A stretch of 64,000 nt of DNA from Escherichia coli O157:H7 (GCF_013167455.1 NZ_CP038328.1); one strand, 5' to 3'; positions 27,028 through 41,761 are shown, numbered from the stretch's first letter. Notes: a model not told the origin generated them from the sequence alone. Program-made: numbers and translations.

Positions 27028-28077
27028 TTAACGGAGTCTATAGCCTTCTTCTAGCACCGCCTGTGTTCGAACGAGTTCATCCGCGAGTCGTTTTTCATCA
27101 GGTAGTTGCATCTTATATTCACTCGCCAGAACGGTGTTAGGCAAACCAGCCAGTGCATAATGCGCTTCTCCGACTCCTTTCTCTGCACAGAGAACCAGAC
27201 CGATGGGCGGATTTTCATCCGGTAGCGTCCAGTGCTCTTTGGCGTAGTTGAGATACATATTCATCTGTCCGGCATCGCTATAGCTGAATTTGCCCACTTT
27301 TAGATCGACGATTAGCAGGCAGCGTAAACGGCGGTGGAAAAACAGCAGATCGACACGAAACCAGTTGTCATCAATGCGTAACCTTCGCTGCCGACCAACA
27401 AAGGCAAAATCATCCCCAAGTTCCAGCATGAAATCCATCAGGTGGTTGATCAGCGCCTCCTCAAAATCGGATTCTGAGTATTCATCTTTCAATTCCAGAA
27501 ATTCGAGCACAAAGGGATCGCGTATCGCCTGTTGCGGAAGAATATGCGTCTCGGCAGGAGCGTGTTGTTGCAGCATGGCTGATTTGTCATGTGACAGCAG
27601 TGTTCGCTCATAAAATTGGGTCGCAATTTGCCGTTCTAGCTGGCGAACAGACCAGCCACAGCGGAGCGTCTCTTTTTCATAAAAGCTGCGGGTGTCAGCG
27701 TTTTTAACGGAAAGTAAACGGACGTAAGTGGACCAGGGCAATGGTGTTAATTCGCCAGACACTGTCTGGCGAATTTCAACATGTTGAAAAAAGAGGTAAA
27801 AAAGCCTCATTTGGCGTAAGTTTTTTGCAGAGAACCCACGCTTATACCTTAGACTTAAATCCTTTGATAGTCGCTTGATTAGCTGCGCACCATACGCAGC
27901 CCTGGCCTCGCCACCTTGTTCAAATTCGACAATTCGTCGGCCAATTTCCCAGTATGTCGCGGTCATCAGCGCGTTAACGCTACGTACCGTTTCCGTCCGG
28001 GCGCTATCGACCAGGTGAATAATACCGTCGTGGATTTGCTGGTAGCCTGTTGAGGTTCTCTCTGAGAGCGATTCCAT
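27028..28077 (-). CDS. yhcG: DUF1016 / PD-(D/E)XK nuclease-like protein YhcG
   Basis: 349-aa ORF; C-terminal nuclease-like motifs ...RVDLLFF... and ...IVDLKVGK...; convergent with nanQ; begins 183 bp after the gltD stop. Confidence 0.8.
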   Translation of the reverse strand: MESLSERTSTGYQQIHDGIIHLVDSARTETVRSVNALMTATYWEIGRRIVEFEQGGEARAAYGAQLIKRLSKDLSLRYKRGFSAKNLRQMRLFYLFFQHVEIRQTVSGELTPLPWSTYVRLLSVKNADTRSFYEKETLRCGWSVRQLERQIATQFYERTLLSHDKSAMLQQHAPAETHILPQQAIRDPFVLEFLELKDEYSESDFEEALINHLMDFMLELGDDFAFVGRQRRLRIDDNWFRVDLLFFHRRLRCLLIVDLKVGKFSYSDAGQMNMYLNYAKEHWTLPDENPPIGLVLCAEKGVGEAHYALAGLPNTVLASEYKMQLPDEKRLADELVRTQAVLEEGYRLR

Positions 28078-35850: not shown

Positions 35851-38187
35851 ATGAAGCAAATTCGTCTGCTGGCGCAGTATTATGTTGACCTGATGATGAA
35901 GTTAGGTCTGGTGCGCTTCTCAATGTTGCTGGCGCTGGCCCTCGTCGTTCTTGCCATTGTGGTACAAATGGCGGTAACCATGGTGCTGCATGGTCAGGTC
36001 GAAAGCATTGATGTTATTCGTTCTATCTTCTTTGGTTTGCTGATTACGCCGTGGGCGGTCTACTTTCTATCGGTGGTCGTCGAGCAACTGGAGGAGTCAC
36101 GACAACGTCTGTCACGGCTGGTGCAAAAACTGGAGGAGATGCGCGAGCGCGATTTGAGCCTCAACGTTCAGTTAAAAGATAATATTGCCCAGCTAAATCA
36201 GGAAATTGCCGTTCGTGAAAAAGCGGAAGCAGAACTGCAGGAAACCTTCGGCCAACTGAAAATTGAAATCAAAGAGCGCGAAGAGACACAAATTCAGCTC
36301 GAGCAGCAATCCTCATTTTTACGTTCCTTCCTTGATGCTTCACCCGACCTGGTTTTTTATCGTAACGAAGATAAAGAGTTTTCCGGCTGTAACCGCGCGA
36401 TGGAGCTGCTGACCGGAAAAAGCGAAAAACAACTGGTTCACCTGAAACCTGCTGATGTTTACTCACCGGAAGCCGCTGCGAAAGTCATTGAAACCGATGA
36501 AAAAGTGTTCCGTCATAATGTGTCACTGACCTATGAGCAGTGGCTGGATTATCCCGACGGACGCAAAGCCTGCTTTGAAATTCGTAAAGTGCCGTACTAC
36601 GACCGCGTGGGTAAACGTCACGGTTTGATGGGCTTTGGTCGCGACATTACCGAGCGTAAGCGGTATCAGGATGCGCTTGAACGCGCCAGCCGCGACAAAA
36701 CGACGTTTATTTCCACCATCAGCCACGAATTGCGTACACCGCTGAACGGTATCGTCGGCCTGAGCCGCATTCTGCTGGATACCGAACTCACCGCCGAGCA
36801 GGAAAAATATCTCAAGACCATCCATGTTTCGGCCGTCACGCTGGGGAATATCTTTAACGATATTATCGACATGGATAAGATGGAACGGCGCAAGGTCCAG
36901 CTTGATAATCAACCGGTTGATTTCACCAGCTTCCTTGCCGATCTGGAAAATCTCTCCGCATTGCAGGCGCAACAAAAAGGATTGCGCTTTAACCTGGAGC
37001 CGACGCTGCCATTACCGCATCAGGTCATTACCGACGGGACGCGTTTACGGCAGATCCTGTGGAACCTCATCAGTAACGCCGTCAAATTCACCCAGCAAGG
37101 CCAGGTTACCGTGCGCGTGCGCTACGATGAAGGCGATATGCTGCATTTTGAAGTGGAAGATTCTGGTATCGGCATTCCGCAGGATGAGCTGGATAAAATC
37201 TTCGCCATGTATTACCAGGTGAAAGACAGTCATGGCGGTAAACCTGCCACCGGCACCGGTATTGGTCTGGCCGTTTCTCGTCGTCTGGCGAAAAATATGG
37301 GCGGCGATATTACGGTTACCAGCGAACAGGGTAAAGGTTCAACCTTTACGTTGACGATCCACGCACCGTCGGTAGCAGAAGAGGTCGATGATGCGTTTGA
37401 TGAAGACGATATGCCTTTACCGGCGCTGAATGTGCTGCTGGTGGAAGACATTGAACTGAACGTGATTGTCGCGCGTTCTGTGCTGGAAAAATTAGGTAAC
37501 AGCGTTGATGTCGCCATGACCGGCAAGGCGGCGCTGGAGATGTTTAAACCGGGCGAATACGACCTGGTGTTGCTGGATATTCAGTTGCCAGATATGACCG
37601 GGCTGGATATCTCTCGTGAACTGACGAAGCGTTATCCGCGAGAGGATTTACCGCCGCTGGTGGCCTTAACCGCTAACGTGCTGAAAGACAAACAAGAGTA
37701 CCTCAATGCTGGAATGGATGATGTGCTGAGTAAGCCGCTTTCTGTTCCGGCGCTAACCGCGATGATCAAGAAATTCTGGGATACCCAGGATGATGAGGAG
37801 AGTACGGTGACGACAGAAGAGAACAGTAAATCAGAAGCATTGCTCGATATTCCCATGCTGGAACAGTATCTCGAACTTGTAGGACCGAAGCTGATCACCG
37901 ACGGGTTAGCGGTGTTTGAGAAGATGATGCCAGGCTATGTCAACGTGCTGGAGTCGAATCTGACGGCGCAGGATAAAAAAGGCATTGTTGAGGAAGGACA
38001 TAAAATTAAAGGTGCGGCGGGGTCAGTGGGGTTGCGCCATCTGCAACAGCTGGGTCAGCAAATTCAGTCTCCTGACCTTCCCGCCTGGGAAGATAACGTC
38101 GGTGAATGGATTGAAGAGATGAAAGAAGAGTGGCGTCACGACGTAGAAGTGCTGAAAGCGTGGGTGGCAAAAGCCACTAAAAAATGA
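35851..38187 (+). CDS. arcB: Hybrid sensor histidine kinase ArcB
   Basis: 778 aa; two N-terminal TM helices, PAS, H-box SHELRTPLN, HATPase, receiver and C-terminal HPt domains. Confidence 0.95.
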   Translation: MKQIRLLAQYYVDLMMKLGLVRFSMLLALALVVLAIVVQMAVTMVLHGQVESIDVIRSIFFGLLITPWAVYFLSVVVEQLEESRQRLSRLVQKLEEMRERDLSLNVQLKDNIAQLNQEIAVREKAEAELQETFGQLKIEIKEREETQIQLEQQSSFLRSFLDASPDLVFYRNEDKEFSGCNRAMELLTGKSEKQLVHLKPADVYSPEAAAKVIETDEKVFRHNVSLTYEQWLDYPDGRKACFEIRKVPYYDRVGKRHGLMGFGRDITERKRYQDALERASRDKTTFISTISHELRTPLNGIVGLSRILLDTELTAEQEKYLKTIHVSAVTLGNIFNDIIDMDKMERRKVQLDNQPVDFTSFLADLENLSALQAQQKGLRFNLEPTLPLPHQVITDGTRLRQILWNLISNAVKFTQQGQVTVRVRYDEGDMLHFEVEDSGIGIPQDELDKIFAMYYQVKDSHGGKPATGTGIGLAVSRRLAKNMGGDITVTSEQGKGSTFTLTIHAPSVAEEVDDAFDEDDMPLPALNVLLVEDIELNVIVARSVLEKLGNSVDVAMTGKAALEMFKPGEYDLVLLDIQLPDMTGLDISRELTKRYPREDLPPLVALTANVLKDKQEYLNAGMDDVLSKPLSVPALTAMIKKFWDTQDDEESTVTTEENSKSEALLDIPMLEQYLELVGPKLITDGLAVFEKMMPGYVNVLESNLTAQDKKGIVEEGHKIKGAAGSVGLRHLQQLGQQIQSPDLPAWEDNVGEWIEEMKEEWRHDVEVLKAWVAKATKK

Positions 38188-39070: not shown

Positions 39071-39795
39071 GTAAAAGCCGCTTAACGGTGTTTAGTTTCG
39101 TTCGCCGTTTTCTTCTGCGGTTAATGGTTGTCCTCGCCGTTTTCTGGGGCGGGGGCATCGCGTTGTTTAGCGTTGCACCTGTTCCCTTCTCTGCGGTAAT
39201 GGTCGAGCGACAGGTCAGCGCCTGGCTGCATGGTAATTTTCGTTACGTGGCACATTCTGACAGGGTCAGTATGGATCAAATCTCGCCGTGGATGGGACTG
39301 GCGGTGATTGCCGCAGAAGATCAGACATTTCCTGAGCACTGGGGCTTTGATGTCGCTTCCATTGAGAAAGCCCTGGCGCACAATGAGCGCAATGAAAACC
39401 GTATTCGCGGTGCTTCAACGATTTCTCAACAGACAGCCAAAAATCTCTTTTTATGGGATGGGCGTAGCTGGGTTCGAAAAGGGCTGGAAGCCGGATTAAC
39501 GCTGGGGATAGAAACTGTCTGGAGCAAAAAGCGTATCCTGACGGTTTACCTGAATATCGCCGAATTTGGCGACGGTGTGTTTGGCGTCGAAGCTGCGGCA
39601 CAACGTTATTTCCACAAACCCGCGAGCAAACTTACCCGATCGGAAGCTGCCTTACTGGCAGCTGTATTACCTAATCCACTTCGTTTCAAAGTCTCCGCGC
39701 CATCGGGCTACGTGCGCAGCCGTCAGGCGTGGATTTTACGGCAGATGTATCAGTTAGGCGGTGAGCCGTTTATGCAACAACACCAGCTGGATTAA
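39067..39795 (+). CDS. mtgA: Monofunctional biosynthetic peptidoglycan transglycosylase
   Basis: 242 aa; N-terminal TM and GT51 motif ([17 protein letters not shown]); overlaps the elbB stop by 4 nt. Confidence 0.9.
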
Positions 39796-40424
39796 GCTTC
39801 GCGCGAAGCGAGGGCCAGCGTTTTGCTCTCACGAGGTTGCAGATCTTTCTGCAGGGCAATAGCCAGCGCCGGTTGGGCGATAAATCGTTTCCACAACCGC
39901 TCTTGCTTACGCAGACAACACCACTTTGACCAGGTCGCCAGTGGAATCAATGTGCTTTCACCAATGTTGTCGCAGACGACGGGGATAACCTCTGACTCAC
40001 TAATGCGGTGACAGAGGATATTCTGCGGCTTCAGCGACATCGTCACGATACGGTTATCCTGCAAATAACGCTTCAGCTGTTTCAGTAATTGGCGCAGTTG
40101 TGCAACGTCTTCTTCGTAACGGCATTGTTCAGCAAATTCGGTCAGCGTAATGGAGGGCTTGCCGTCAAAATCAGCAATCACATCATAAACATAACCGGTT
40201 CCGCAATCCGTCTCGACGGTACCGTGATAGCGCGGTATTCCACTCCAGTCTTTTAACCGGCGACCAAGATGCGCGTAGTACTTTAACTCACGACGGATCT
40301 CTTTATCGCCACCATCGCCACGATGGTAGACAATCTTGATACAGCGTTGGGCATCTTCCGGATGCGCATAACATTTCCGATGTCTTCCGGTGCCCAGGGG
40401 ACTTTGTTCAGATAAGCGAATCAT
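39792..40424 (-). CDS. yrbL: Uncharacterised protein YrbL (PhoP-regulated in E. coli)
   Basis: 210-aa ORF matching YrbL. Confidence 0.8.
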
Positions 40425-40474
40425 GCCATCTCCTGGAAATATTTTCTGACGATCTCCAGTATGGTCGATTAACT

Positions 40475-40491
40475 TAAACGAAACCTAAACA
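40475..40491 (-). promoter_or_regulatory. PhoP-box-like direct repeat upstream of yrbL
   Basis: minus strand TGTTTAggtttCGTTTA (hexamer, 5-nt spacer, hexamer), about 50 bp upstream of the yrbL start codon. Confidence 0.5.
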
Positions 40492-40495
40492 ATGC

Positions 40496-40517
40496 TTCTT
40501 AAGGTTTTCTTAAGGTT
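40496..40517. repeat. Perfect tandem 11-bp direct repeat (TTCTTAAGGTT x2)
   Basis: ttcttaaggtt ttcttaaggtt, immediately beside the PhoP-box-like site in the npr-yrbL spacer. Confidence 0.6.
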
Positions 40518-40637
40518 CTTCTGAAAGTAAAAAGCGCACGAAATGTACAATTGACGTTGATTGAGAACGATTTCAGTACGTGATTTTCTTATTGTCGGGG
40601 GGAGTTTGAAGGGAGTTGTATGTCAAAGTGATGAAGA

Positions 40638-40910
40638 TTAATCTTCATCAAAACCAGAATTAAAGAGGGCGATAACGGCGGCCAGTGCTTCCTCTTCCTG
40701 TGGACCGGTCGCTTCAACTTCAATCTGCCGTCCTTTGGCAGAATCCAACATCAGCAGCGCAATAACGCTGTTGGCTTCAGCCTCGGTGCCTTCGTCATTA
40801 CGTAACAGCACTTCAGCGTCAAAACCCTGCATTAATTCAAACAGCTTCATTGCAGGCCGGGCATGCATGCCCAGCTTGTTTGTGATTTCAACAGTTTGCT
40901 TGACAGTCAT
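40638..40910 (-). CDS. npr: Nitrogen-PTS phosphocarrier protein NPr
   Basis: 90-aa HPr-like protein with the active-site His context GMHARPA. Confidence 0.9.
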
Positions 40911-41761
40911 GGTTTACGTTTTTCCAGCGTACGATGGCGTGACTGGACGTTTTTACCGCGCGAGCGGAAGTAGTCTGCCAGTTGCTCTGCAATATACACC
41001 GAACGGTGCTTCCCGCCGGTACAACCAATGGCGACCGTCAAGTAGCTACGGTTGTTGGTTTCCAGCATAGGTAACCATAGCTCAAGATAGCTTCGCGTCT
41101 GGTAGATAAAATTGTGTACTTCTGTGTGGCGGTCGAGGAACGCGGCGACAGGCTTATCAAGACCTGTCATTGGACGCAGTTTCGGATCCCAGTGCGGGTT
41201 CGGCAAGAAGCGCACGTCAAAGACGTAATCTGCATCGATAGGGATACCGTGTTTGAAGCCGAAAGACTCAAAGACCATTGTCAGTTCGCGTTCACGTTTA
41301 CCCAGCAGACGGGTACGCAGCATTTCTGCCAGCTCGTGAACGGACATTTCTGAGGTATCGACAATCAGATCCGCTCGCGAACGCAGAGGCTCCAGCAGAT
41401 CGCTTTCTTTGTCGATAGCACTTTCCAGCGACAGGTTTTTGCTGGAAAGCGGATGCAGTCGGCGCGTGTCACTGTAACGACGAATTAAGGTATTACGGTC
41501 GGCATCCAGGAACAGTAGTTGCGGTGAGAAAGCGTCAGGCAGGTTACTCATCGCCTGTTCGAATATTTCTGGTGACTCCGGCATATTACGAACATCAATG
41601 CTGACGGCGGCAGAAATCTCGCGATCGGCCAGGGTTCGAGCCAGATCGGGTAACAACACTACGGGAAGGTTATCCACGCAGTAAAAACCCATATCTTCCA
41701 GCGCACGCAGGGCGACAGATTTACCTGAACCTGAACGTCCGCTGACGATCATCAGTACCAT
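40907..41761 (-). CDS. rapZ: RNase adaptor protein RapZ (YhbJ)
   Basis: 284 aa; P-loop GRSGSGKS. Confidence 0.9.

Follow-up and report, generated by a model that had tools for sequence, protein, structure and literature searches.

Hairpins at the 3′ ends of bacterial messages include the REP/BIME elements, which stabilize mRNA, the canonical intrinsic (Rho-independent) terminators, whose stem is followed by a tail with 7–8 U, and the bidirectional hairpins between convergent genes that were reportedly described by Ju and colleagues in 2019. A further group was described in Escherichia coli by Dar and Sorek (2018; PMC6061677), in which Rho-dependent transcripts have precise steady-state 3′ ends located directly after stem-loops without U-rich tails; higher usage of C than of G and rut sites are seen just downstream, and PNPase and RNase II trim these transcripts as far as the stem-loop. 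In the same work, stem-loops followed by a weak U-tract were regarded as possibly inefficient intrinsic terminators with Rho as a backup.

Here the analysis concerned a palindrome at the end of npr in a 64,000-nt stretch of E. coli O157:H7 DNA (GCF_013167455.1, NZ_CP038328.1), referred to below as the window. The hairpin formed by this palindrome resembles the Dar and Sorek stem-loops in that it precedes a precise 3′ end at the end of an operon, has neither a U-rich tail after it nor an A-tract before it, and is followed at once by sequence in which C exceeds G. It differs from them in having a weaker stem (−9.5 kcal/mol) than most and in overlapping coding sequence, with the stop codon in the loop, and for npr we infer the Rho dependence, the exonuclease trimming and an effect on mRNA half-life. 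With canonical intrinsic terminators it shares a 3′ end located 5–7 nt beyond the hairpin and the first tail bases CUUU, but its stem has only 3 G-C pairs and its tail has U in 4 of 9 positions rather than 7–8, in contrast to the terminator GAAAACGCC-N4-GGCGUUUUUUU present at this site in some Citrobacter. REP elements occupy the same position after npr in other genera, presumably with the same job; the npr hairpin is unlike the GCCGGATAAGGCG or GGCGGGT...ACCCGCC elements, is present as a single copy and is half coding. The likeness to bidirectional hairpins is found in a palindrome between npr and mtgA in Lelliottia, whereas in E. coli the next gene, yrbL, is co-directional with npr and only one direction is relevant.

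Our reading, to which we give a probability of roughly 0.55, is that the palindrome is a protective stem-loop that works as RNA and not as DNA, and that it defines the 3′ end of the rpoN-hpf-ptsN-rapZ-npr mRNA. It is an ordinary, weak transcript-end hairpin lacking a U-tract and does not represent a new kind of element; it has not been remarked on before, though it is implicit in a published supplementary table (Bar et al. 2023).

Sequence and predicted fold of the npr 3′ end

The sequence at 40629–40650 of the window is TGATGAAGATTAATCTTCATCA, which reads identically on the two strands (arm of 11), so that the perfect 22-bp palindrome across the npr stop codon described in the first-pass annotation was confirmed by a self-complementarity check. 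Read on the npr strand (−), it is (UU)U GAU GAA GAU UAA UCUUCAUCA, comprising 13 nt of coding sequence and stop (F-D-E-D, TAA) and 9 nt of non-coding sequence unconstrained by the protein. The gene order rpoN-hpf-ptsN-rapZ-npr on the − strand, with npr last, was likewise supported by the ORF list and the RefSeq annotation (Table 1). The 571 bases around the palindrome showed 100% identity to O157:H7 chromosomes and 98.8% to K-12, where the palindrome has the identical sequence at 3348226–3348247. Downstream, mtgA (+) converges on yrbL (−), the two genes overlapping by 4 bases (window 39792–39795), and a yrbL 3′ end has been mapped to K-12 3349181–85, antisense to mtgA and ~100 nt inside it.

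Table 1. Coordinates of the features at the npr–yrbL junction, counted from the first base of the window.
Feature	Position	Strand	Evidence
Palindrome / RNA hairpin	40629..40650	−	Self-complementarity, RNA fold, fold printed in Bar et al. 2023 Suppl. Data 3
Hairpin 5′ arm, U GAU GAA GA, coding	40650..40642	−	Fold
Hairpin loop, U + UAA stop	40641..40638	−	Fold
Hairpin 3′ arm, UCUUCAUCA, non-coding	40637..40629	−	Fold
npr (ptsO), 90 aa, ends GFDED*, UAA at 40640..40638	40638..40910	−	ORF list, RefSeq annotation of identical DNA (O157:H7, K-12)
Tail CUUUGAC with mapped RNA 3′ ends	40622..40628	−	Bar et al. 2023 TRS tables, K-12 coordinates transferred
Tract with many C, few G and little structure; candidate rut (Rho loading) region	40559..40628	−	Base counts
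rapZ	40907..41761	−	ORF list / annotation
yrbL, same direction as npr, next gene	39792..40424	−	ORF list / annotation
Perfect CTTAAG-N5-CTTAAG repeat, resembles PmrA/BasR box	40498–40514		Matches Zwir et al. 2012 architecture
PhoP box, TGTTTAGGTTTCGTTTAAG	40473–40491	−	Matches Zwir et al. 2012 architecture
−10 CATACT of yrbL	40458–40463		Matches Zwir et al. 2012 architecture

No other perfect palindrome in the 64-kb window reaches an arm of 9. Palindromes with an arm of ≥11 appeared in 6 of 200 dinucleotide-preserving shuffles, giving an expectation of ~0.03 per window; extrapolated to a whole E. coli genome, this rate could yield one or two such palindromes by chance, so that length alone is not decisive. 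When a 36-mer centred on the palindrome was compared with E. coli genomes, only its own locus was matched, counted twice per genome because the palindrome matches both strands. A literature search with the core sequence GAAGATTAATCTTC returned one unrelated Staphylococcus aureus paper and nothing relevant. Three more perfect palindromes, each of 16 bp, were present at 21929–21944 (AGCAAATCGATTTGCT), 27774–27789 (TTTCAACATGTTGAAA) and 36907–36922 (AATCAACCGGTTGATT); for an arm of 8, the shuffles predict about one per 64-kb window.

Folded as RNA, the 22-mer formed a hairpin of −9.5 kcal/mol, its 9-bp stem capped by a UUAA loop (z = −3.8, none of 200 shuffles being as good), and this hairpin was kept in the centroid structure when folded with 141 nt of context. 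The 11-bp mRNA stem proposed in the first-pass annotation is thereby corrected to 9 bp and a 4-nt loop, since the four central bases cannot pair within a hairpin. The stop codon fills three of the four loop bases. Extrusion of a cruciform found no support, the DNA hairpin reaching only −6.7 kcal/mol per strand, and the shortness of the stem spoke against an RNase III site, which was rejected.

The tail after the stem is CUUUGACAU, with a maximum of 4 T in any 8-nt window, and a terminator consensus scan requiring ≥5 T in 8 nt made no call at the palindrome. Together with a published maximum U-tract of 3, this upholds the earlier statement that no U-tract follows the stem. The sole hit of the promoter/terminator scan fell within npr, at the GGGCATGCATGCCC palindrome, and on the other strand. 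An Rfam 15 scan of 39700–41200 (E≤10) gave only chance hits to eukaryotic snoRNA and miRNA models, all far below their gathering scores. The 70 nt downstream of the stem contain 23 C and 6 G, and this C-minus-G difference of 17 lies in the top 0.7% of 70-nt windows within the 64-kb window. By base composition, the C-rich, G-poor tract resembles a Rho loading site and is a candidate for one.

Mapped RNA 3′ ends

RNA 3′ ends of K-12 MG1655 have been mapped by applying the TRS method to RNAtag-seq (Bar et al. 2023; PMC10687069). In the LB data, a + strand terminus labeled “npr Primary” has its peak at 3348246–3348259, a dominant position at 3348252 and a signal of 0.68, and was significant in all three LB libraries (adjusted p = 3e-5, 1e-5 and 1e-11). 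The 3′ UTR table of the same study gives npr a 3′ UTR of 15 nt ending at 3348252, and the fold printed for the terminus is the same hairpin, at −10.2 kcal/mol and with the maximum U-tract of 3 mentioned above. In its tables, an independent older dataset shows a peak at 3348245–3348261 with the dominant position at 3348254; in another older dataset the npr-end terminus is absent and a terminus at 3348203, inside npr, is found instead. Because the O157 and K-12 sequences are identical here, these coordinates could be transferred to the window, where 3348252 corresponds to 40624 (the G of CUUUG), 5 nt past the stem, and 3348254 to 40622, 7 nt past the stem. The coordinates were checked on the thrL attenuator in the same sheet, for which the printed fold sequence ends one base past the dominant position and the 3′ end lies 6 nt past its own stem. 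Most “Primary” termini in this table have folds of −13 to −25 kcal/mol, placing the npr stem (−9.5 kcal/mol) at the weak end.

Other datasets were searched for the same end. In the Term-seq of Adams et al. (2021), which covered three conditions, the + strand list passes from 3342985 (lptC) directly to 3348581 (inside yrbL), and none of its four files holds a coordinate beginning 33482; npr does not occur in the bicyclomycin table of that study, whose single yrbL entry is antisense on the − strand. The npr operon is modestly expressed. The supplementary tables of SMRT-Cappable-seq and TERMITe contain nothing for npr or yrbL, and an EHEC ProQ paper mentions rapZ in another context only. Support for the npr 3′ end comes from the method of a single laboratory, applied to two or more datasets, and the end is missing from the thresholded list of another study. 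Mapping of the npr 3′ end had been put forward in the first-pass annotation as the check on the stem, and its outcome is divided between the “Primary” terminus of Bar et al. and the Adams et al. list, which has none; a terminus 5–7 nt past the stem is what a stabilizing 3′ stem predicts and was therefore counted as support.

Two further 3′ ends were noted around npr. The perfect 14-bp palindrome GGGCATGCATGCCC (window 40859–40872, − strand) lies 39–52 nt into npr, and 9 nt past it is a terminus at K-12 3348026 (window 40850), labeled “Alternative primary in TU, rapZ” and listed with a −16.2 kcal/mol fold (PMC10687069), so that some transcripts may end after rapZ and exclude npr. The other follows a CCAUCGUGGCGAUGG hairpin within yrbL, ~129 nt from the start of the ORF (window ~40295–40299, K-12 3348577–3348581); it was mapped by Adams et al. 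2021 as well as by Bar et al. 2023, was apparently marked as not Rho-dependent in the former, and could be the stop of npr read-through or of prematurely ended yrbL transcripts. The yrbL gene is also the source of a model RNA polymerase pause sequence (PMC11260103).

Conservation in Escherichia

The 36-mer centred on the palindrome was identical in 5,399 of 5,425 complete E. coli genomes (≥99%), a count blind to mismatches at the outermost bases of the 36-mer, which alignment trimming would hide. Across Escherichia lineages the stem varied. The perfect stem of E. coli (−9.5 kcal/mol) was also perfect in E. whittamii (L018) and strain E1V33 (L017), with one pair changed from U-A to C-G (GAU...AUC to GAC...GUC; −10.9 kcal/mol). 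The same switch was found in SCPM (L013) together with loss of the outermost pair (−10.8 kcal/mol). The stem was cut to 7 bp in E69 (L016; −6.1 kcal/mol), carried a U.G pair and a mismatch in MOD1-EC7003 (L001; −3.8 kcal/mol) and had two mismatches in E. albertii (L012; −4.3 kcal/mol). Over the seven lineages, 91.7% of alignment cells were paired and a single pair covaried, from U-A to C-G with a U.G intermediate. Covariation was not significant in this alignment and is no proof of structure, since it concerns a lone pair and 109 of 500 shuffles also reached one covarying pair.

The non-coding 3′ arm showed a mean pairwise identity of 0.84 with 4 of 9 columns variable, versus 0.54–0.67 and 73 of 89 variable columns for the flanking non-coding DNA (Fisher p = 0.02). 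Inside Escherichia the non-coding arm is thus kept beyond coding constraint, a point that the first-pass annotation had raised for the palindrome. The yrbL promoter block, with an identity of 0.85, was similar to the 3′ arm. The U's of the tail were not kept, the corresponding bases in other Escherichia being CUCUGCC, CCCUGAC and UUCAGAC.

Two other features of the npr–yrbL spacer were observed in this alignment. A block at 40530–40551 (− strand ATTGTACATTTCGTGCGCTTTT), between the palindrome and the BasR box, had a mean identity of 0.91 across Escherichia lineages versus ~0.55 in its surroundings, and the promoter scan made no call there. In L013, L016, L017 and L018, a short G+C hairpin (e.g., CGCCC-TAAC-GGGCG) followed by an A run occupies columns ~84–110 of alignment A1, where E. 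coli has a 12-base gap; as a terminator, its orientation fits neither direction.

The npr 3′ end in other genera

Conservation of the palindrome across Enterobacteriaceae, also raised in the first-pass annotation, did not hold: among the loci compared it was absent outside Escherichia, Salmonella included, and other genera carried unrelated hairpins at the npr end. Over 81 Enterobacteriaceae loci, the most stable individual hairpin from −15 to +60 relative to the npr stop had a median of −13.0 kcal/mol versus −9.6 kcal/mol when the downstream sequence was shuffled, and hairpins at ≤−12 kcal/mol were found in 60% of loci versus 23% of shuffled controls. REP-like hairpins lie ~10–30 nt after npr in Enterobacter, the Citrobacter freundii group, Klebsiella and Kluyvera. 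The canonical Citrobacter terminator lies between npr and yrbL in C. amalonaticus (L021 and L041), C. sedlakii (L039) and C. koseri (L049), where, taken as GAAAACGCC-N4-GGCGTTTTTTT, it spans ~32–58 nt past npr; E. coli has none.

A second stop-spanning palindrome, GATGAGGAC-TAA-GTCCTCATC, was found in Lelliottia and a relative (−12.6 to −13.8 kcal/mol), and bulged versions of it in L032, L043 and L045. In Lelliottia and the relative (L056, L058 and L068, at ~1758–1782), npr and mtgA converge, separated by a 9-nt spacer, GTCCTCATC, that runs up to the mtgA stop. This spacer pairs base for base with the final nine coding bases of npr, giving a perfect palindrome of 21 nt centred on TAA. In Lelliottia, yrbL is absent, and the hairpin belongs to the npr end and not to yrbL regulation; it could be shared by the npr and mtgA mRNAs. 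The tail after it, UAGUACAA, is not U-rich. Against shuffles, stop-spanning stems reached p≤0.01 in two lineages, where ~0.3 would be expected, and p≤0.05 in about four of ~25–30, where ~1.4 would be expected, an excess that is suggestive only. Homology of the Escherichia and Lelliottia hairpins as relics of an npr/mtgA convergent junction was an attractive possibility in view of the 3′ arms, TCTTCATC and GTCCTCATC, but was set aside, intermediate genera being without the hairpin and ~80 loci being too few. Taken over the family, some hairpin at the end of the rpoN operon is kept, and the hairpin itself is replaceable.

Proposed mechanism and alternative explanations

A ribosome terminating with the stop codon in the loop covers both arms of the stem, given the size of its footprint. 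In the proposed mechanism, RNA polymerase would usually pass the stem, because CUUUGAC is a poor U-tract and because of this cover by the ribosome terminating on UAA. After ribosome release, Rho may load on the C-rich, G-poor tract and stop transcription diffusely downstream, and the 3′-to-5′ exonucleases PNPase and RNase II would then trim the message back to the re-formed stem-loop, which would protect npr. A minority of polymerases might terminate directly at CUUUG. The first-pass annotation had preferred a stabilizing 3′ stem or a protein-binding site to a classical terminator; the stem half of this proposal agrees with a 3′ end past the stem and no U-tract, while for the protein-binding half there are only an 11/19 match to the Fur box and a Fur ChIP peak assigned to yrbL.

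In the leading alternative, which we regard as rather unlikely, the palindrome is a weak, non-canonical intrinsic terminator, the hairpin and CUUU releasing RNA polymerase so that the mapped 3′ end is the point of termination itself. The distance of 5–7 nt between stem and 3′ end is the geometry of bona fide terminators, as seen at the thrL attenuator, and it is for this reason that weak intrinsic termination is retained as an alternative. In addition, U occupies three of the first four tail bases, the 3′ peak is local and precise, and Dar and Sorek allow stem-loops with weak U-tracts as inefficient intrinsic terminators (PMC6061677). The canonical terminator between npr and yrbL in some Citrobacter further means that termination at the operon end is to be expected. 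Set against this are the failed consensus scan (4 T in 8 nt where ≥5 are required), the AU-rich stem of −9.5 kcal/mol and the terminating ribosome, which would cover both arms; since the stop codon sits in the loop, the efficiency of such a terminator would depend on the lag of the leading ribosome. Protection is favored over intrinsic termination because the U's of the tail are conserved neither in other Escherichia nor after the Lelliottia hairpin. The protective stem-loop and direct weak intrinsic termination are not mutually exclusive.

That the palindrome has no selected function and is a chance or mutational inverted repeat, arising for example by template-switch “correction” of a quasi-palindrome, appears distinctly unlikely. 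Any RNA hairpin stalls exonucleases, so that the 3′ end would in this case be incidental, and the chance expectation for a whole genome, the non-significant covariation, the broken stem in several Escherichia lineages and the absence of the palindrome from Salmonella and most genera are all in line with such an origin. Copies of the npr end that are inverted in a different register, of which AGACTAAC...GTTAGTCT in Citrobacter L042 is one, also look mutational. The palindrome nevertheless lies exactly at the operon end with a mapped 3′ end, its non-coding arm is better conserved than its flanks and its sequence is near-invariant in E. coli genomes; across the family, post-npr hairpins are enriched over shuffles and stop-spanning stems at p≤0.01 exceed expectation.

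It is improbable that the palindrome acts as a DNA site for a dimeric regulator, for which Fur is the candidate; the bound protein would act from ~185 bp ahead of the PhoP-dependent start of yrbL or would obstruct read-through from npr as a roadblock. Beauchene et al. (2015) listed yrbL among 36 operons with both a Fur ChIP-seq peak and Fur-dependent expression, as newly Fur-bound and Fur-repressed, the peak being assigned to yrbL. The six best matches to the 19-bp consensus GATAATGATAATCATTATC in 40400–40720 all overlap the palindrome at 11/19, the half-sites GATGAAGAT / ATCTTCATC match the consensus GATAATGAT / ATCATTATC at 7 of 9 positions, and the palindrome, AT-rich with GAT-type hexamers like the Fur box, is symmetric right to its centre; moreover, yrbL is up in serum and down in iron-adapted strains. 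A Fur operator, however, is expected to show a good 19-bp match and 9-1-9 symmetry, whereas the best match here is a score reached by ~0.4% of window positions, with half-sites spaced 9-2-9 through one extra central base pair; Fur binding at the palindrome itself is putative. The yrbL promoter described by Zwir et al. (2012), with a PhoP box overlapping the −35, a −10 CATACT and PmrA/BasR repression, has its elements at 40458–40514, ~185 bp from the palindrome; the known PhoP and PmrA/BasR boxes thus lie elsewhere, and iron effects on yrbL could run via BasSR. The stop-spanning palindrome of Lelliottia has another sequence and no yrbL downstream, and GAT has changed symmetrically to GAC in Escherichia lineages, both of which fit structure better than sequence recognition. 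Sites for CRP, FNR, ArgR, Cra, NikR and LexA were rejected for wrong half-site spacing after comparison of the palindrome with their consensus sites by eye.

A dual-purpose element, serving as the RNA 3′ hairpin of the rpoN-operon message and also as the DNA Fur site reported for yrbL, is very improbable; if it were real, Fe-Fur on the palindrome would block npr read-through into the PhoP/BasR-controlled yrbL or otherwise repress yrbL, linking iron status to the npr–yrbL junction.

Implications

The understanding of such elements is unchanged by this locus. For E. coli, the proposed protective stem-loop would account for the place where the rpoN-hpf-ptsN-rapZ-npr message ends and for the lack of a recognizable terminator there, through a half-coding stem-loop followed by a rut-like tract. 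For the family, it offers an example of hairpin turnover at one operon end, where REP elements, canonical terminators and stop-spanning palindromes are found in related genera. In practice, npr mRNA stability or read-through into yrbL could be altered when the final codons of npr are recoded synonymously, or when yrbL or npr is deleted in a way that leaves a scar.
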